64,000 nt of DNA. Origin: Escherichia coli (GTDB lineage: Bacteria > Pseudomonadota > Gammaproteobacteria > Enterobacterales > Enterobacteriaceae). The position numbers were made by a program, and so were the translations under genes. The notes beneath the pieces were generated by a model, which was not told the DNA's origin, did no database searches, and saw nothing but the letters and a program-made list of their open reading frames with translations. The stretch is taken from NCBI RefSeq assembly GCF_044647545.1, contig NZ_CP172818.1. The stretch is one strand, 5' to 3'. Positions 6,648-60,710 of the stretch are shown here, in pieces; position 1 is the first letter of the stretch, and every line of letters begins with the position of its first letter.

Positions 6648-7762
6648 GCCTGCCTTTTTTAAGCACGCTGCAAGGCGATCGTTTTTTTCAGTTATTAATT
6701 CTTGTTGGCATCGGATTAAGCTTTTTCGTTCCCTTTGCACCGAAATCCTGGCCTGCTGCTATCGACTGGCACACCATCATCACCTTAAGCGGCCTGATGC
6801 TGCTGACCAAAGGTGTCGAGTTAAGCGGTTATTTTGATGTGCTGGGGCGCAAAATGGTGCGCCGTTTTGCTACGGAGCGTCGGCTGGCGATGTTTATGGT
6901 ACTGGCGGCGGCGCTGCTTTCTACCTTTCTGACCAACGATGTCGCGCTGTTTATAGTTGTTCCGCTGACTATCACGCTAAAAAGACTGTGTGAGATCCCG
7001 GTTAATCGGCTGATTATTTTTGAGGCGCTGGCAGTCAACGCTGGTTCGCTACTGACGCCAATTGGCAACCCGCAAAATATTCTTATCTGGGGACGTTCTG
7101 GTCTTTCGTTTGCCGGATTTATTGCCCAAATGGCACCGCTGGCTGGCGCAATGATGCTGACACTCCTGCTGTTGTGCTGGTGTTGTTTCCCTGGAAAGGC
7201 GCTGCAATACCATACGGGGGCGCAAACGCCGGAGTGGAAACCGCGGCTGGTGTGGAGTTGTCTGGGGCTGTATATCGTTTTTCTGACGGCGCTGGAGTTC
7301 AAACAAGAGCTGTGGGGACTGGTGATTGTGGCGGCCGGCTTTGCGCTGCTGGCACGTTGCGTGGTGCTCAGTGTGGACTGGACGCTGCTGCTGGTGTTTA
7401 TGGCGATGTTTATCGACGTCCATTTACTGACCCAGCTTCCAGCGTTGCAAGGCGTGTTGGGTAACGTGAGTCATTTATCTGAACCCGGGTTATGGTTAAC
7501 GGCAATCGGTTTATCGCAGGTGATCAGTAATGTGCCGAGCACGATTTTGCTGCTCAATTATGTGCCACCGTCTTTATTATTGGCATGGGCGGTAAACGTA
7601 GGTGGCTTTGGTTTATTACCCGGATCGCTGGCAAATTTGATTGCGTTACGGATGGCGAACGATCGCCGTATCTGGTGGCGTTTTCATCTTTATTCGATAC
7701 CGATGCTGTTGTGGGCGGCGCTGGTGGGATACGTTTTATTCGTTATGCTCCCGGCCAACTAG
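6644..7762 (+). CDS. ybiR: Putative transporter (anion permease / ArsB-NhaD-like fold)
   Basis: 372-aa polytopic membrane ORF overlapping the mntR stop (ATGA); gene order matches ybiR. Confidence 0.85.
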
Positions 7763-7774
7763 GGTCTGGCCAAA

Positions 7775-7808
7775 TAAAAAAGGCGGATGATGAGTCCGCC
7801 TCTGTTTT
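7775..7808. terminator. Rho-independent terminator hairpin between convergent ybiR and ldtB
   Basis: aaaaaaggcggatgatgagtccgcctctgtttt: GC stem with flanking A-run and T-run. Confidence 0.7.
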
Positions 7809-16208: not shown

Positions 16209-18641
16209 TTACAGCATATGTTCAGTACGGGCGATGATATCGTCCTGAGCGTCTGGAGAGAGCGCGGTGAAGAAGGCGGAATAGCCCGCGACACGCACTA
16301 CCAGATCGCGGTACTGATCCGGATGTTTTTTCGCTTCCAGCAGCGTTTCGCGGGAAACGATGTTGTACTGAATATGCCAGCCTTTATGCACTTCAAAGAA
16401 GGTGCGTAGCAGGATCATCAGTTTCTGCTTGTCAGATTCGTTCTCCAGCGTTGCCGGATTCAGTTTCTGGTTGAGCAACACGCCGCCGAGAATCGCGGCC
16501 GTAGGCAGTTTACCCACCGAGCCAATGACCGCAGTAGGGCCAAGATGATCAGTACCGGAGGCCGGACTAGCTCCTTCTGCCAGCGGGGTATGCGCTTTAC
16601 GTCCGTCCGGCGTTGCCATCGTCTGCGCGCCAAAGGGTACGTTAGCGGAGATAGATGACGTACCCGCGTAATAATTGCCGCCAACCGGACCACGACCATA
16701 GCGCGGGTTATGGTACTGTTTTAGTTCGTCGATATAGGTCTGATAAGCGCGAGCCAGCAGCGTATCGACAGTATCATCGTCGTTGCCGTACTTAGGCGCA
16801 CCGTTAATCAGCCGCTGACGCAGCTGCTCGTGAGTCAGGCCGTCGAAGTCATCCGCCAGTGCGGCAGCCAGCTGTTGCTGACCAATCGCGCCCTGTTCAA
16901 ATACCAGTTTCTTCACTGCCGCCAGGCTGTTGCCGAGGTTAGCAATGCCGACCTGCAGGCCAGAAACCCAGTCATATTTCGCGCCGCCTTGCTTGATACT
17001 TTTCGCTCGCTCAATACAGTCATCCACCAGCGCCGAGCAGAGAATATCGTGTACGTTCTCTTCCAGCATGGTGTCGACGACATATTCGATTTCGATTGAT
17101 TTACGCGTGTAGTAACGGATTTGCGTATCCCATGCGTCCATTACTTCATCGAAGTTGTTGAAGTTACCCGCTGACAACGCTTTTTCTTGTGGCAGGAACA
17201 CTTTGCCGCTGGTGGCATCACGACCGCCTTCCAGCGCCGCCAGCATCACGCGGGCGAAGTTGATAAAGCTCATGCCGGTACAGCGATAGCCCCATTTGCC
17301 ACCGACGGCGGTTTCGATACAACCAATCGCTGCGTAGTCGTAAGCGTCCTGCGGTTCAATACCGAGTTTAATAAATTCCGGGATGACGATTTCATCGTTG
17401 TTGAACGCCGGCATCCCGAAACCACAGCGGATCACCTGAACACAGGCATCGAGGAAATCGTTACTCATACCCGCATGGTAACGCACGCTGAGGTTAGGCT
17501 GAGTCGAACGCAGGCGACCGCAGGATTCGAGGATCGCATAAGAGAGTGGATTTACCGCGTCCATCGGTTGACCATCAACCAGATTTTGCCCGCCAATGGT
17601 GACGTTCTGATACAGCGGACTTCCCGCAGAGGCTTTTGAGTGTGAGCCGGAGCGGATTTTGTTCACTTCCAGCAATTTCAACCAGCAGCTATGCAGCATC
17701 TCGATGGCGTGTTCGCGATCCAGTGTCTGGTTCAGTTCAACGTCACGGCGATAGTATGGATAGAGATACTGGTCCATACGACCAAAAGATACTGAGTGAC
17801 CGTTAGATTCGATCTGCAATATCAACTGGATGAAGTAACACAGTTGCAGCGCCTGCCAGAAAGTCTGCGGCGGTTGGTGGGCGATAAGATCGCAGTTTTC
17901 TGCCATCGCCAGCAGTTCATCGCGACGGCTTTCGCGGGTTTCGGTCGTGGCCATTTCACGCGCCAGGGCAGCGAAACGTTCAATGTGTTCACTGACTGCC
18001 ACCAGCACGATATCAATCGCTTTCAGGAATTGCTCGCCGTGCAGATCTTCCAGTACCGTCAGATTGATGCGCGAGCGACGTTCCGCCACTTTCTCACGCA
18101 GACCATCAAGCCCTTTTTCCAGCAGTAGCGGGAAATTCACCGCCAGGTGCGCATCGCCGGAGGTCATATTGCCCTCCGCTTTAATGATGCCGGTCGCCAG
18201 CAGACCTTTTTGCTCATCGGTAAACATGCCGTAGCAGCGATCCTGTACCGTCTGACCGCGCCACCACGGGCACACTTCATGCAGAACACGTTTGTTCTCC
18301 TCGCTCACCGCAAAACCAGCACCCGGACGATCTGCCAGATCATCAATCTCTTTTTCGATCCACGAGACGGTATATTCCGGGAAGATCGGCGCGGCGCGAA
18401 CCTCGCTTGCCTGGTTGCCGATGATCAACTCATCGTGCTTGATCCAGATGGTGCGATTCGCCAGGTGATGCGCCAGTGCCAGCGCGCGACGTACCGGGAT
18501 CGGCTTATCGAGATGTTGTTGATACATCTCGGTATAGTGCTGCGCGCGCTCGGTACAGACTGGTGGTTTCACAATATGCACCAGCGCATTTTTGTGCGCT
18601 TTAATGCGGTCGCTGAGCGTGTCCAGTTTCAGTGTGGTCAT
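16209..18641 (-). CDS. ybiW: Glycyl radical enzyme, pyruvate formate-lyase-like, substrate unknown
   Basis: 810-aa ORF with a C-terminal glycyl-radical motif (...VVRVAGYSAFF...) and a PFL-like fold; matches YbiW. Confidence 0.9.
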   Translation of the reverse strand: MTTLKLDTLSDRIKAHKNALVHIVKPPVCTERAQHYTEMYQQHLDKPIPVRRALALAHHLANRTIWIKHDELIIGNQASEVRAAPIFPEYTVSWIEKEIDDLADRPGAGFAVSEENKRVLHEVCPWWRGQTVQDRCYGMFTDEQKGLLATGIIKAEGNMTSGDAHLAVNFPLLLEKGLDGLREKVAERRSRINLTVLEDLHGEQFLKAIDIVLVAVSEHIERFAALAREMATTETRESRRDELLAMAENCDLIAHQPPQTFWQALQLCYFIQLILQIESNGHSVSFGRMDQYLYPYYRRDVELNQTLDREHAIEMLHSCWLKLLEVNKIRSGSHSKASAGSPLYQNVTIGGQNLVDGQPMDAVNPLSYAILESCGRLRSTQPNLSVRYHAGMSNDFLDACVQVIRCGFGMPAFNNDEIVIPEFIKLGIEPQDAYDYAAIGCIETAVGGKWGYRCTGMSFINFARVMLAALEGGRDATSGKVFLPQEKALSAGNFNNFDEVMDAWDTQIRYYTRKSIEIEYVVDTMLEENVHDILCSALVDDCIERAKSIKQGGAKYDWVSGLQVGIANLGNSLAAVKKLVFEQGAIGQQQLAAALADDFDGLTHEQLRQRLINGAPKYGNDDDTVDTLLARAYQTYIDELKQYHNPRYGRGPVGGNYYAGTSSISANVPFGAQTMATPDGRKAHTPLAEGASPASGTDHLGPTAVIGSVGKLPTAAILGGVLLNQKLNPATLENESDKQKLMILLRTFFEVHKGWHIQYNIVSRETLLEAKKHPDQYRDLVVRVAGYSAFFTALSPDAQDDIIARTEHML

Positions 18642-55512: not shown

Positions 55513-56640
55513 ATGCAGTGCGCACTTTACGACGCGGGTCGCTGTCGTTCCTGTCAGTGGATAACGCAGCCGATTCCAGAGCAACTCTCCGCTAAAACCG
55601 CCGATCTTAAAAATCTGCTCGCCGACTTTCCGGTTGAGGAATGGTGCGCGCCGGTGTCAGGCCCGGAACAAGGGTTTCGTAATAAAGCCAAAATGGTGGT
55701 GAGTGGTAGCGTTGAAAAACCACTGCTCGGTATGCTGCATCGAGATGGTACACCGGAAGACCTTTGTGACTGCCCGCTTTATCCAGCCTCATTTGCGCCC
55801 GTTTTTGCGGCGCTAAAACCCTTCATCGCCCGTGCGGGTTTAACACCTTACAACGTGGCGCGTAAACGTGGTGAACTGAAATACATTCTGCTGACTGAAA
55901 GCCAGAGCGATGGCGGCATGATGCTGCGTTTTGTACTGCGTTCTGATACCAAACTGGCGCAACTGCGTAAGGCGCTGCCGTGGTTACAGGAACAATTACC
56001 GCAGCTGAAAGTTATTACCGTCAATATTCAGCCGGTACATATGGCGATTATGGAAGGGGAGACGGAGATCTACCTGACCGAACAACAGGCGCTGGCAGAG
56101 CGTTTTAATGACGTACCGCTGTGGATCCGTCCGCAAAGTTTCTTCCAGACTAATCCGGCGGTCGCCAGCCAGCTTTACGCCACCGCGCGCGACTGGGTAC
56201 GACAGCTGCCGGTTAAACATATGTGGGATCTGTTCTGCGGTGTGGGGGGCTTTGGTTTACACTGCGCGACGCCTGACATGCAGTTAACCGGGATCGAAAT
56301 TGCGCCAGAGGCCATTGCCTGTGCAAAGCAGTCAGCCGCTGAACTGGGCTTAACGCGTTTGCAATTTCAGGCGCTGGACTCCACGCAGTTTGCCACTGCT
56401 CAGGGGGAGGTGCCGGAGCTGGTGCTGGTTAACCCGCCGCGCCGCGGCATTGGTAAACCGCTGTGTGATTATCTCTCAACGATGGCACCGCGTTTTATTA
56501 TCTACTCCAGCTGTAACGCCCAAACCATGGCGAAAGATATCCGCGAACTGCCAGGTTACCGCATCGAACGGGTACAGCTTTTTGATATGTTCCCGCACAC
56601 CGCGCACTATGAAGTGCTGACGCTGCTGGTGAAGCAATAA
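55513..56640 (+). CDS. rlmC: 23S rRNA (uracil747-C5)-methyltransferase
   Basis: 375-aa ORF with an N-terminal Cys cluster ([14 protein letters not shown]...CDCPLY) and a SAM-dependent MTase domain; matches RlmC (RumB). Confidence 0.95.
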
Positions 56641-56664
56641 AAAAGCCGCAGGTGCGGCTTTCTG
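56638..56664. terminator. Hairpin terminator between convergent rlmC and artJ
   Basis: aaaaaagccgcaggtgcggctttct: GC stem flanked by an A-run and a T-run. Confidence 0.65.
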
Positions 56665-56668
56665 AATC

Positions 56669-57400
56669 TTACTGTGGGAACCACTGGTCATTGATTTTCT
56701 GATATGTACCGTCAGCTTTAATTGCTGCCAGCGCATTATTCAGTTTTTCCAGCAGAGCTTTGTTATCCGGACGTACAGCGATACCTAGGCCGGTGCCGAA
56801 GTATTGCGGATCGGTCACTTTTTCAGTCGCAACGCCCAGTTGCGGATTGGTTTTCAGCCATTCGTTTACCACTGCGGTGTCACCAAATACGCCATCAATA
56901 CGGCCATTTTTCAGATCGATAAAGGCATTCTGATAACTGTCATAGGAGACAGTTTTCACTTCCGGGTGCTGATCCTGAATATATTTCTGGTGCGTGGTGC
57001 CGTTTTCCATCCCAATACGTTTGCCTTTCAGATCGGCAAACGTTTTGTAGGTATCTTTTTTGGCAATCACGACGGCTGAGTTTTCGTAGTAGGGCGTGGT
57101 AAACGATACCTGTTTGCTACGCTCCGGCGTGATATCCATTCCGGAGATTACGGCGTCATATTTTCTGAATTTCAGTGACGGGATCAGGCTGTCGAACGCG
57201 TGATTCGTAAAAGTACATTCTGCCTGCATTTGTTTGCACAAGGCTTTTGCCAGATCGATATCAAAGCCGACAATCTCATTATTAGCACCTATAGATTCAA
57301 AGGGTGGATAGGTGGCTGAAACGCCAAAATTGATTTTCTCTGCGGCAGAAGCACCGAAAGTAAAAGAAGCAAGTAAAGCGGCAAGAACTAACTTTTTCAT
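56669..57400 (-). CDS. artJ: Arginine ABC transporter periplasmic binding protein ArtJ
   Basis: The track ORF extends to 57451; the recognised start is MKKLVLAALLASFTFGASA at 57400 (243 aa). Confidence 0.95.
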   Translation of the reverse strand: MKKLVLAALLASFTFGASAAEKINFGVSATYPPFESIGANNEIVGFDIDLAKALCKQMQAECTFTNHAFDSLIPSLKFRKYDAVISGMDITPERSKQVSFTTPYYENSAVVIAKKDTYKTFADLKGKRIGMENGTTHQKYIQDQHPEVKTVSYDSYQNAFIDLKNGRIDGVFGDTAVVNEWLKTNPQLGVATEKVTDPQYFGTGLGIAVRPDNKALLEKLNNALAAIKADGTYQKINDQWFPQ

Positions 57401-57574
57401 GATGGAACTCCCGTCTGTCAATCTTATGATTTTTGGCCGTGTCTGCGGCATGGGATAACAATGCCATCAAGTGAATTTATATGCAATAAATATGATTAAA
57501 TAATTTAAATGAAATAAAAAAAGACGGACAGCTTAGTGAGTTGCCCGTCTTCATTATAAGAATTTATGCACTAT

Positions 57575-57612
57575 GTAGGCCGGATAAGGCGTCCACGCCG
57601 CATCCGGCATCA
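57575..57612. repeat. REP (repetitive extragenic palindromic) element
   Basis: tgtaggccggataaggcgtccacgccgcatccggcatc: the classic E. coli REP palindrome (GCCGGATAAGGCG...CGCCGCATCCGGC) in the artJ-artM intergenic region. Confidence 0.8.
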
Positions 57613-57624
57613 GACGCAGCCAAA

Positions 57625-58293
57625 TTAATTCCTTCGCTCAAACGCCAGTGCTTTACGCTCGATCAGACGCATCATCAGCGTCAGCAGACCGTTAACAATC
57701 AGGTAAATAATCCCTGCCGCACCGAACACCATGACATCGTAGGTGCGTCCGTACAACAACTGGCTGTATCCCATCACTTCCATCAGCGTAATGGTGTAAG
57801 CCAGAGAAGTACTTTTGAACACCAGCACCACTTCGTTGGAATAAGAAGAGAGCGAGCGTTTAAACGCGTACGGCAGCAGGATCGCCAGCGTATCTTTTTT
57901 GCTCATTCCCAGGGCGCTACAGGACTGCCACTGACCTTCCGGGATCGCGCGAATGGCACCGTAAAACAGCTGCGTGGTATACGCTGCACTGTTCAGCGAC
58001 AACGCAATCAGCGCACATAACCACGGTTCTGACAACAGATGCCACAGTGCCGGATACTCCTGCAACGTCGGGAACTGACCCGGTCCGTAATAAATCAGGA
58101 AGATCTGCACCAGCAGCGGCGTACCGGTAAACAGCGTGATATAGCCCCGCACCAGCCACACCAGCACCGGCGTTTTCAGCGTCAGGATGATGGTAAAAAT
58201 CAATGCCAGAATCAGTGCCACAATCAGCGAGGCAACGGTTAGCGTCAGGCTGGTGTGCAGCCCTTTCATCAGTTCGGGTAAATACTCAAACAT
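57625..58293 (-). CDS. artM: Arginine ABC transporter permease
   Basis: 222-aa permease ORF; operon position. Confidence 0.95.
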   Translation of the reverse strand: MFEYLPELMKGLHTSLTLTVASLIVALILALIFTIILTLKTPVLVWLVRGYITLFTGTPLLVQIFLIYYGPGQFPTLQEYPALWHLLSEPWLCALIALSLNSAAYTTQLFYGAIRAIPEGQWQSCSALGMSKKDTLAILLPYAFKRSLSSYSNEVVLVFKSTSLAYTITLMEVMGYSQLLYGRTYDVMVFGAAGIIYLIVNGLLTLMMRLIERKALAFERRN

Positions 58294-59009
58294 TAGCTGG
58301 GCCTCCGCTCAAAACGTGTCGCGCGCAGGTCAATGCGTTTGAGAATGTACTGACTGAGCAGGGTGATCACCAGGTAAATCGCCGCCGCCACAATGTACCA
58401 GGTAAACGGTTCCTGGGTACGGGTAGCGATGCTTTTGGTTTGTAGCATTAAATCATTCACGCTTATCAAACTGACCAGCGCGGTATCTTTCAGCAGCACC
58501 AGCCACTGGTTACCGAGACCAGGCAGCGCATGACGCCACATCTGCGGCATCACCAGACGGAAAAAGATAGCCGATTTCGACAGCCCCAGCGCCTGTCCGG
58601 ATTCCCACTGGCCCACCGGCACCGCTTTCAACGCGCCGCGCAGCGTTTGCGAGGCATAGGCGGCATACAGCAGCGACAGAGCGATGACACCACAAAGGAA
58701 CGGGCTAACGTCGAAGTTCTCAATGTCCATCTGCACCGGGATCTGCACGAACCCAAGATTGATAGTGAAGCCATCCGAAAGCGTCAGCAGCAGCTGCGAG
58801 GAGCCAAAATAGATAAACAGCACCACCAGAATTTCTGGCAGGCCGCGCAGAACCGTCACCAACGCTGAACCTGCCCACGCGACGGGACGCCATTTTGCAG
58901 ACTCCCATACCGCAAAGAACATCGCCAGCGCCAGCCCGACAATCAATGCACAAACGGCAAGGCCGACGGTCATCCCGGCGGCGCTTGCTAAAGGAAAAAA
59001 TTCATTCAT
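58293..59009 (-). CDS. artQ: Arginine ABC transporter permease
   Basis: 238-aa permease ORF; its stop overlaps the artM start. Confidence 0.95.
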
Positions 59010-59015
59010 CAGGAA

Positions 59016-59747
59016 TTACTTCTGGAACCATTTGTTGTAGATGGTTTCGTAAGTGCCATCTTTCTTCACTTTTTCCAGCGCAGTGTTGAGTTTCTGCTGC
59101 AGTTCAGTGTTGCCCTGACGTACCGCGATGCCGAGACCAGTACCGAAGTAATCTTTATCGGTCACTTTATCGCCCACTGCCGCCAGTTTCGGGTTGTCTT
59201 TCAGCCACTCGGTGACCACTGCGGTGTCACCGAATACGCTGTCGATACGACCGTTTTGCAGATCCAGTTTTGCGTTCTGGTAGCTGTCATACGGAACGGT
59301 GGTGATTTCCGGGTGCTTATCCATAATGAACTTCTGGTGTGTCGTCCCGTTCTGAACGCCGACTTTTTTGCCTTTCAGCTGATCAACACTGGTGTATTTA
59401 CCCTGCTGACCCACAAACAGGGCAGAGTTGTCATAGTAAGGGGTGGTAAACAGCACCTGCTTTTCACGTTCTGGGGTGATATCCATCCCGGCCATCACCG
59501 CTTCCACGCGACGGAATTTCAGGCTTGGGATCAGGCTGTCAAATGCCTGGTTGGAGAAAGTGCAGGTTGCATCAATCTCTTTACACAGCGCTTGTGCCAG
59601 GTCGACGTCAAAACCAACGATCTGGTTGTTTGCATCAATCGATTCAAACGGAGGATAGGAGGCTTCGGTAGCAAAACGAATAGTTTCGGCAGCTGTGGCG
59701 GAAAGACTAAAACCTGCAATTAACGCGGCAATCAGAACTTTTTTCAT
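59016..59747 (-). CDS. artI: Arginine-binding periplasmic protein ArtI
   Basis: 243-aa ORF with signal peptide; paralogue of ArtJ. Confidence 0.95.
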   Translation of the reverse strand: MKKVLIAALIAGFSLSATAAETIRFATEASYPPFESIDANNQIVGFDVDLAQALCKEIDATCTFSNQAFDSLIPSLKFRRVEAVMAGMDITPEREKQVLFTTPYYDNSALFVGQQGKYTSVDQLKGKKVGVQNGTTHQKFIMDKHPEITTVPYDSYQNAKLDLQNGRIDSVFGDTAVVTEWLKDNPKLAAVGDKVTDKDYFGTGLGIAVRQGNTELQQKLNTALEKVKKDGTYETIYNKWFQK

Positions 59748-59764: not shown

Positions 59765-60493
59765 TTAGTGAGAGAGATAGTTTTTAAATGCTTCGGTTTG
59801 CGGCTCGGTAAAGCAGCTCGCGTCGCCTTGTTCTACGATATGACCGTTTTCCATATACACCACTCGGCTGGCGGTTTTACGCGCCACTTCAACTTCGTGG
59901 GTGACGATCACCTGGGTAATATTCGTTTCTGCCAACTCACGAATGATGCTGACGATTTGTGCCGTAATTTCCGGGTCCAGTGCGGCGGTCGGTTCATCGA
60001 ACAGCAGTACCTGCGGTTCCATCATCAACGCACGGGCAATAGCAACACGCTGCTGCTGACCACCAGAAAGATGCAGCGGGTAACGATCGCTATAAGGTTT
60101 GAGACGCAGACGTTCCAGCAGTTTTTCTGCACGGGCCAGCGCCTGATCTTTGCTCAACCCCAGTACACGGCAGGGCGCTTCAATCAGGTTTTGCTGCACG
60201 GTCAGATGCGGCCACAGGTTGTATTGCTGAAACACCATGCCAACGTTACGACGCAAATCGCGAATCGCTTTGTCAGAGGGTGTTTTGGTGAAATCGAAAT
60301 GGTTGCCTGCAATGTTGAGCGTACCGGAGCGCGGCATCTCAAGCAGATTGAGTACACGCAGCAGCGAGCTTTTCCCCGCGCCGCTGGGGCCAAGTAACAC
60401 CAGCGTTTCGCCCTGTGGGCAATCCAGCGTGATATCGAACAGCGCCTGATGCGCGCCGTAGAAGCAATTAATGCCGTTTAATTGAATACTCAT
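59765..60493 (-). CDS. artP: Arginine ABC transporter ATP-binding protein
   Basis: The track ORF extends to 60592; the recognised start is [18 protein letters not shown] at 60493 (242 aa); Walker [10 protein letters not shown]. Confidence 0.95.
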
Positions 60494-60710
60494 TGACACT
60501 CGTATACTGGCAGTCTGATAGCTATTGAGGTCGAAGATAGTACCTTTGACAGAATAATTATGCAATATTTCTGCTTTAAAAGTTAAAAGCAAAGCGCATT
60601 ATTCAATAAACATAGCACAAAATAACGGGGGCGGTGGTCGGCGAGCATAAATGTCGGCATTCCTCACGAAATGCCGGACAATTTACGGGGTTTATTGGTT
60701 GATCAAGGCG

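Follow-up and report, generated by a model that had tools for sequence, protein, structure and literature searches.

The artPIQM-artJ arginine transport locus of an Escherichia coli chromosome, its two paralogous binding proteins and a strain-variable REP element between artM and artJ

The art cluster of E. coli K-12 (artPIQM-artJ, b0864-b0860), known as the "third arginine transport system", is a long-described arginine-uptake cluster, and both the genes and their regulation have been covered in the literature (PMC6640053). There, artPIQM and artJ are separate transcription units, both regulated by ArgR; artJ is repressed by ArgR, and the promoter PartP is regulated by ArgR and Lrp (PMC6640053). 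The same work provides the basis for arginine binding by ArtJ, a high-affinity binder with a Kd of 0.4 uM, and for the dependence of uptake on ArtQMP (PMC6640053). A second system of the same polar amino acid transporter family, argT-hisJQMP, in which LAO and HisJ operate on HisQMP2, likewise has two paralogous family-3 binding proteins per translocator. The two clusters differ in layout: both binding-protein genes of the his cluster lie upstream of the permease genes, whereas those of the art cluster lie on either side of them, with the ATPase gene first. A further point of comparison is the REP family of E. coli (types y, z1 and z2), whose members are defined by a GTAG tetranucleotide directly 5' of a palindrome with a 20-50 nt stem carrying two conserved mismatches, the bulge, and of which group 2 is recognized and cleaved by TnpA-REP, the biochemical criterion for that class (PMC8266576).

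The DNA that we analysed, a stretch of 64,000 nucleotides from an E. coli chromosome (hereafter the window), almost certainly carries this same locus, that is, an ATP-driven, binding-protein-dependent arginine importer. The genes artP, artI, artQ, artM and artJ follow each other in that order on its minus strand, and genes, order, strands and the rlmC and ybjP flanks, a conserved chromosomal context, are those of K-12 (Table 1). Gene identities can be read directly. Several E. coli chromosomes annotated artP/artI/artQ/artM/artJ match the stretch at 100% identity, and all five products exceed the curated cut-off of their own NCBIfam equivalog model (5/5), so the gene names proposed in a first-pass annotation hold. 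ArtJ scores 534.5 bits against the ArtJ_Ecoli equivalog (cut-off 510), covering model positions 1-243 of 243, and ArtI scores 536.7 bits against ArtI_Ecoli (cut-off 522); against the ArtJ model, ArtI reaches only 395 bits, below the cut-off of 510. Of 5,426 E. coli genomes, 5,424 contain the art stretch; the five-gene order recurs in E. albertii as well as in the divergent lineages E69 and SCPM-O-B-8794. Over the 1.2-kb artJ region, the window shares about 95% identity with K-12-like strains. The arrangement had been put forward as already known, and it is (PMC6640053). Among the evidence that we gathered, nothing contradicts the identification of the art locus; its weak points are functional only, namely the ligand of ArtI and the role of the REP.

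Two details of the genes may be added. The artQ stop codon and the artM start codon overlap by one base, and the 243 residues of ArtJ are counted from the MKKLVL start, the open frame extending another 17 codons upstream. Two of the seven loci from a scan of public genomes, in Doudnabacteria and Competibacteraceae assemblies, were set aside as chance 21-mer matches that lack art genes.

Table 1. Features of the art cluster and its spacers, in positions of the window.
Feature	Coordinates	Strand	Description
Hairpin terminator common to convergent artJ and rlmC	56640-56663	minus	Strong T-run on the artJ strand
artJ	56669-57400	minus	243 aa, periplasmic arginine-binding protein with its own control region; Pfam SBP_bac_3; annotated artJ in identical genomes
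ARG-box-like ArgR operator, artJ control region	57470-57508		Best box 57470-57487; weaker box 57491-57508, 3 bp away
Predicted intrinsic terminator of the artPIQM transcript	57516-57551	minus	Hairpin then 7-U run; arms 57521-57533 and 57539-57551
Single REP, y-type	57575-57612	plus	GTAG at 57575-57578; 13-bp arms, 2-mismatch bulge
artM	57625-58293	minus	Permease subunit, 222 aa; NCBIfam ArtM equivalog 423.4 bits (cut-off 248); Pfam BPD_transp_1
artQ	58293-59009	minus	Permease subunit, 238 aa; NCBIfam ArtQ equivalog 467.5 bits (cut-off 277)
artI	59016-59747	minus	Second periplasmic binding protein, 243 aa, ArtJ paralogue, inside the operon
artP	59765-60493	minus	ATP-binding subunit, 242 aa; NCBIfam ArtP equivalog 502.7 bits (cut-off 369); Pfam ABC_tran
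artP control region	60549-60586	minus	ARG-box-like site 60549-60566 overlapping a promoter-like site (-35 TTAACT, -10 CATAAT)

In this cluster, artJ cannot simply be counted as the operon's last gene, as a REP, an intrinsic terminator and a control region bearing an ARG box part it from artM. In transcription order, the spacer would present the REP hairpin, the terminator that ends artPIQM, and then the operator and promoter region of artJ. The terminator was missed by a consensus scan because its stem is interrupted, and was recovered by folding: the RNA folds at -16.4 kcal/mol (z -4.84), none of 200 shuffles is as stable, and UUUUUUU follows. The hairpin is kept in all Escherichia loci aligned; its terminating role is probable, as judged from these features or taken from the literature. 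Just beyond it, the stronger of the two ARG boxes is the best match to the 18-bp consensus in the whole 64-kb window, with 1 mismatch, and the second, judged by eye, has 4. The artJ ARG box does not vary among E. albertii, E. whittamii and the other Escherichia loci, and the terminator and ARG-box region are the same in K-12 as in the window. Upstream of artP, the ARG-box-like site matches the consensus with 2 mismatches, and the promoter scan there agrees at 9 of 12 positions. At the other end of the cluster, the hairpin between artJ and rlmC has a 10-pair stem with 5 G-C pairs followed by TTTTT in the terminator scan, and folds at -14.3 kcal/mol on the minus strand (z -5.6) and at -12.5 kcal/mol on the plus strand.

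We also confirm that the two binding proteins, whose genes had been described as duplicated and as flanking the permease genes, are paralogues placed on either side of artQM, with artI upstream and artJ downstream. Aligned by BLASTP, the two proteins, both of 243 aa, share 155 of 241 positions (64% identity, 80% positives, no gaps, E 2e-124), and both peptide motifs quoted for them are found verbatim. The nucleotide identity of artI and artJ is 67.8%, and only 46% at third codon positions, which marks the duplication as old. A recent duplication or gene conversion is ruled out by the same third-position value together with the longest identical run, which is 17 nt. The identity of ArtI and ArtJ is likewise about 64% in the loci of E. 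albertii, E69 and SCPM-O-B-8794. For comparison, HisJ and ArgT are 70% identical (PMC6640053), and ArtJ and ArtI share 37-39% identity with ArgT and HisJ.

In the likely transport model, the permease subunits ArtQ and ArtM and the ATPase ArtP would form the membrane translocator, and ArtI and ArtJ, as products of the old duplication, are thought to bring substrate to it. The sharing of one translocator by the two proteins, like the assignment of their ligands, is deduced or drawn from the literature. ArtJ would be the high-affinity, arginine-specific binder, supplied from its own arginine-repressed unit downstream of artM. ArtI is encoded within the operon, and its ligand is given as arginine/ornithine or as unknown, depending on the source. 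The earlier description of both as arginine-binding proteins stands for ArtJ on the strength of the literature; for ArtI the label rests on annotation, the biochemistry is unsettled and sources disagree. The curated K-12 record names ArtI a "putative ABC transporter periplasmic binding protein", and reviews present it as an arginine/ornithine binder (PMC6640053 among them). This inconsistency among public sources is a minor new point of our analysis.

An alternative is that ArtI does not bind arginine at all: as a paralogue, it would have moved to another ligand, perhaps one yet to be identified, and the phrase "duplicated arginine-binding proteins" would then be overstated. We consider this unlikely. 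The word "putative" in the curated annotation would fit it, and Wissenbach et al. are said to have found in 1995 that purified ArtI bound no common amino acids. Aligned on what we take to be the ligand-contacting residues of LAO (lysine/arginine/ornithine-binding protein), ArtI and ArtJ differ at three positions of the side-chain pocket, those of Asp11 (Glu in ArtI, Ser in ArtJ), Ser69 (Ala, Ser) and Leu117 (Gln, Glu). STM4351, an arginine-specific Salmonella protein, has the ArtJ residue at the Asp11 and Leu117 positions but the ArtI residue, Ala, at that of Ser69. However, ArtI keeps the residues that grip the alpha-amino and alpha-carboxylate groups and sandwich the side chain (those aligned with Tyr14, Phe52, Arg77, Thr120/121 and Asp161). 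STM4351 (PDB 2y7i), moreover, is the closest solved structure to ArtI and ArtJ alike (E 2e-81 and 1e-93, with almost the whole mature protein aligned), although it is a separate protein from a separate locus; neither ArtJ nor ArtI of E. coli has a solved structure in the PDB copy that we searched. Arginine and ornithine are the ligands that reviews give for ArtI, and artI is ArgR-repressed according to the review literature.

The spacer from the artM stop codon to the artJ start codon carries a REP element, as had been claimed. Its plus-strand letters are GTAGGCCGGATAAGGCGTCCACGCCGCATCCGGCATCA, and a consensus search finds the REP pattern GCCGGATGCGGCG-N4-CGCCTTATCCGGCCTAC without a mismatch in the reverse complement, whereas 100 shuffles of the window give no match. 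This exact match is not independent evidence, since the pattern was written after the sequence had been read; the copy number and the similarity to Rfam naRNA4 are independent. The inverted arms (57579-57592 and 57595-57608), GCCGGATAAGGCG and CGCCGCATCCGGC, form 11 pairs, with A.C and A.G mismatches at positions 8-9. On the art mRNA, the element reads as an inverted copy, 16 nt past the artM stop codon. A 45-nt query around it hits at least 40 places per genome by blastn in 5,425 of 5,426 E. coli genomes, and the element is therefore a real dispersed repeat. Megablast places the same query about once per genome, as it needs a 28-nt exact word, which leaves blastn as the valid test of copy number. 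The Rfam match to naRNA4 (57578-57615; 37 bits against a gathering score of 59.5, E 4e-4) reflects REP similarity only; no match in the Rfam scan attains its gathering score, and those to CRISPR-DR53 (E 0.095) and AbsR25 (E 0.65) were treated as chance.

Consistent with the known family, group 2 of which comprises the TnpA-REP targets, the element has the GTAG tag, a bulged, imperfectly palindromic stem, an extragenic position and a high copy number. It is most likely a passive member of this genome-wide family, dispersed by transposase. We found no second canonical REP elsewhere in the 64-kb window; matches to the REP tail at 16734 and 20469, with 2 mismatches each, have non-palindromic surroundings and were put down to chance. 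A BIME, which takes at least two REPs in alternating orientation, is likewise rejected for the window, the spacer of which holds one REP only.

In this respect, the window departs from K-12 and most E. coli, which have a paired REP and inverted REP (a BIME) at the same site. The artM-artJ spacer is 224 nt long with one REP in the window and 290 nt long in K-12, where there is an extra, inverted z-type REP. We observe directly that REP content here varies by strain, which is new but minor. Of 59 sampled chromosomes, 20 have a single REP, as the window does (about a third of E. coli), and 39 have two, as in K-12 (~60% of E. coli); a three-REP spacer, such as that of 14EC033, occurs in 41 of 5,426 genomes. 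The alleles of K-12 and 14EC033 are BIMEs by the above definition. In E. albertii, the spacer has another pair (y, followed by z), and the copy seen in the window is absent. A second difference, equally new but minor, lies in the artJ-rlmC spacer, which is 28 nt in the window and lacks the REP pair of K-12; the K-12 spacer is 198 nt, and its terminator hairpin is duplicated around a 170-bp insert that holds the pair.

Given that strains carry one, two or three REPs, a strict need for any one arrangement is argued against. It seems about as likely as not that the REP has no function here and leaves art expression unaffected, being a remnant of REP/BIME turnover through TnpA-REP activity or recombination between copies. 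The variable number and the substitution of another pair in E. albertii agree with this, as do the flanks of the window REP: its left flank is that of the first y copy and its right flank that of the second y copy in the three-REP allele, the pattern that recombination between two direct copies would leave. However, in none of the Escherichia alleles examined is the interval from the artM stop codon to the terminator free of REPs, and mRNAs that contain REPs are structured substrates, the decay of which needs RNase R and PNPase (PMC12320835).

The opposite reading, possible if doubtful, is that the REP affects the gene upstream of it, either by stabilizing the 3' end of artPIQM or by hindering terminating ribosomes, with less ArtM as the outcome. 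The stable hairpin that it would form in the 3' untranslated region of the artPIQM mRNA may slow decay by 3' exonucleases; any effect on this mRNA is reasoned or taken from published work. The element is part of the transcribed 3' end, ahead of the terminator, and its hairpin appears when the full spacer RNA is folded to minimum energy. REPs close to stop codons reportedly hinder terminating ribosomes and lower output, as Liang, Rudd and Deutscher are said to have described in 2015, with a reported threshold of ~15 nt from the stop codon. In the window, 16 nt separate the artM stop codon from the REP stem, and in the two-REP allele of K-12 the first REP stands ~38 nt away, so the alleles differ in spacing. 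Yet 16 nt is borderline against that threshold, and in a 58-nt fragment an alternative hairpin with the 16-nt upstream stretch competes against the REP stem. It is more improbable still that the one-, two- and three-REP alleles are non-neutral, with hairpin distance (16 nt against ~38 nt in K-12) and hairpin number setting lineage-specific levels of ArtQMP or of read-through into artJ; we regard this as very unlikely.

Our findings matter little beyond correct annotation, given that this is a textbook amino-acid importer and that the REP family has been known for decades. The public label of ArtI as an arginine-binding protein nevertheless outruns the curated K-12 record. If the REP alleles were indeed non-neutral, arginine uptake capacity would vary between E. 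coli lineages. The natural series of one, two and three REPs, together with the outgroup arrangement, suggests how the series arose and offers a convenient test bed for the effects of REP number and position on the upstream gene.

The window carries the five art genes on its minus strand, between ybjP and an rlmC gene that converges on artJ, and these neighbours are the same as in K-12. Several E. coli chromosomes match the 4.3 kb around the locus at 100% identity, and 5,424 of the 5,426 complete genomes of the species contain a match, annotated as artP, artI, artQ, artM and artJ. All five products score above the curated cut-off of their own NCBIfam equivalog models and carry the expected Pfam domains (SBP_bac_3, BPD_transp_1 and ABC_tran). 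FDAARGOS_497 is likewise 100% identical over the locus, its match ending at about 61247, just beyond ybjP; an annotated pentapeptide-repeat pseudogene lies ~650 bp past ybjP in that strain, in place of the window's ybjQ and amiD-like ORFs, and there may have been an insertion or replacement in either strain.

Coordinates of the art genes and associated elements in the window
Feature	Position	Strand
artP	59765-60493	minus
artI	59016-59747	minus
artQ	58293-59009	minus
artM	57625-58293	minus
artJ	56669-57400	minus
artM-artJ spacer	57401-57624	
REP GTAG tag	57575-57578	plus
Predicted artPIQM terminator hairpin	57521-57551	
ARG box before artJ	57470-57487	
artJ-rlmC junction	56641-56668	
Predicted artJ/rlmC terminator hairpin	56640-56663	
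Hairpin-forming stretch between ybjP and artP	60645-60681	

The first-pass annotation described ArtJ and ArtI as duplicated arginine-binding proteins. The duplication is borne out by a gap-free pairwise alignment, in which the two 243-residue proteins are 64% identical (E 2e-124), and the motifs cited for them occur verbatim. The two are cleanly distinguishable, since each scores below the cut-off of the other's NCBIfam model. Their genes are 67.8% identical, with 46% identity at third codon positions and a longest identical run of 17 nt; the duplication is thus old, with no recent homogenization. In E. albertii and the divergent lineages E69 and SCPM-O-B-8794, the five genes stand in the same order and ArtI/ArtJ identity is likewise ~64%, which places the duplication before the split of E. 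albertii from E. coli. Compared with five other Escherichia loci from a genome scan (L008-L013; E. albertii, E. whittamii, Escherichia sp. E1V33, E69 and SCPM-O-B-8794), ArtJ of the window is 96.7% identical, and ArtI, ArtQ, ArtM and ArtP are 98-100% identical. O157:H7 has a separate ArtJ protein accession, with ~93% DNA identity across the artJ region.

The nearest solved structure for both paralogs is the arginine-specific Salmonella STM4351; a search of our PDB copy found no structure of E. coli ArtI or ArtJ. We took the ligand-contacting positions of the lysine/arginine/ornithine-binding protein (LAO) to be Asp11, Tyr14, Phe52, Ser69, Arg77, Leu117, Thr120/121 and Asp161. In an alignment with E. 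coli ArgT and HisJ, both proteins keep those aligned with Tyr14, Phe52, Arg77, Thr120/121 and Asp161, and ArtJ and ArtI differ at Asp11 (Ser versus Glu), Ser69 (Ser versus Ala) and Leu117 (Glu versus Gln). Sources conflict on ArtI: the curated K-12 record calls it a “putative ABC transporter periplasmic binding protein,” and the original 1995 study reportedly found no ligand for the purified protein, whereas reviews list it as an arginine/ornithine binder (PMC6640053; PMC8050422). “Arginine-binding” is a firm label for ArtJ but a provisional one for ArtI.

Along the art mRNA, the artM-artJ spacer (224 nt, 41% G+C) holds a REP, a predicted artPIQM terminator and the artJ control region, in that order. 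The terminator hairpin is followed by U7 (fold −16.4 kcal/mol, z −4.8) and is kept across Escherichia. The control region contains the best ARG-box match of the entire window, with one mismatch, invariant across every Escherichia locus aligned; a second ARG-box-like site upstream of artP overlaps a promoter-like site. Both agree with the published picture of artPIQM and artJ as two ArgR-regulated transcription units (PMC6640053), and that literature bears out the earlier remark that the arrangement is known. Downstream of artJ, one hairpin is the predicted terminator for both convergent genes. Between ybjP and artP, the hairpin-forming stretch CCGGCATTTCGTGAGGAATGCCG resembles a CRISPR repeat model of Rfam, with a score below threshold (E 0.095); a ybjP terminator or a chance match is more likely than a CRISPR repeat.

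The REP begins 16 nt past the artM stop codon TAA. On the plus strand, GTAG is followed by arms GCCGGATAAGGCG and CGCCGCATCCGGC, separated by a 4-nt loop and forming 11 pairs with two adjacent mismatches. The same features, a GTAG tag and a bulge of two mismatches in the stem, are listed for E. coli REPs (PMC8266576). The first-pass annotation had placed a REP here, and the y-type consensus matches with no mismatches (0 of 100 shuffles match). Because this consensus was set down with the sequence already seen, we give more weight to copy number (at least 40 REP-like sites per genome in 5,425 of 5,426 E. coli genomes) and to Rfam, which matches the element to naRNA4, a family of REP origin, though only below threshold. 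In a short RNA fragment (57570-57627, minus strand), the 16 nt after the artM stop can pair with the 5′ arm of the REP (GGCUGCGUCUG with CGGAUGCGGC), competing with the REP hairpin; when the whole spacer is folded, the REP hairpin prevails.

REP content varies among strains on both sides of artJ, which is unsurprising given that REP/BIME polymorphism is a known source of E. coli intergenic variation. Unlike the single-REP spacer of the window, that of K-12 is 290 nt long, with an additional z-type REP in opposite orientation upstream of the y copy. In a systematic sample of 59 chromosomes, with one representative per size class checked by sequence, the single-REP allele is present in about 20 and the two-REP allele in 39; an independent count finds two or more REPs in 3,259 of 5,426 genomes (60%). 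A three-REP allele (y, z, y; 328 nt, L015:225-552) occurs in 41 of the 5,426. The two-REP form is also present in E. whittamii, Escherichia sp. E1V33 and two divergent “E. coli” species representatives, and the E. albertii spacer has y then z without the downstream y. The spacers compared include L015 and L008 (~7490-7786). On the left, the REP of the window is flanked like the first y copy in the three-REP allele; on the right, like the second. This suggests that recombination or slippage, acting between two y copies in direct orientation, gave rise to the single-REP allele, although other histories are possible.

The artJ-rlmC junction is also polymorphic. The window has an “empty” 28-nt form, as against 198 nt in K-12 (L001:2147-2344), where a 170-bp insert with a z2-type REP, a y-type REP and an IHF-site-like linker lies between duplicate copies of the terminator hairpin. 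Other strains have a 174-nt junction (L003:302-475), with a 146-bp version of the insert lacking the first hairpin copy, and in O157:H7 and some others an island with PTS IIC/IIB and sulfatase genes lies between rlmC and artJ (L005 and L006:976-2457 were also compared).

In the most likely mechanism, the translocator consists of ArtQ, ArtM and two ArtP subunits, and is supplied by ArtJ and presumably also by ArtI; a translocator common to both is given as a supposition in the literature (PMC6640053). Placing artJ behind its own operator would let arginine repress the high-affinity binder far more strongly than the operon (PMC6640053; PMC8050422). The REP would form a stable hairpin within the 3′ untranslated end of artPIQM, and since decay of REP-containing mRNAs requires RNase R and PNPase (PMC12320835), modest protection of that end is plausible; with the stem so close to the stop codon, termination of artM translation could conceivably be affected as well, but this is speculative. 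The first-pass observation is thus confirmed and its interpretation supported, with the caveat on the ArtI ligand. The feature itself is already known and ordinary; what our analysis adds to it is the variation in REP content among strains.
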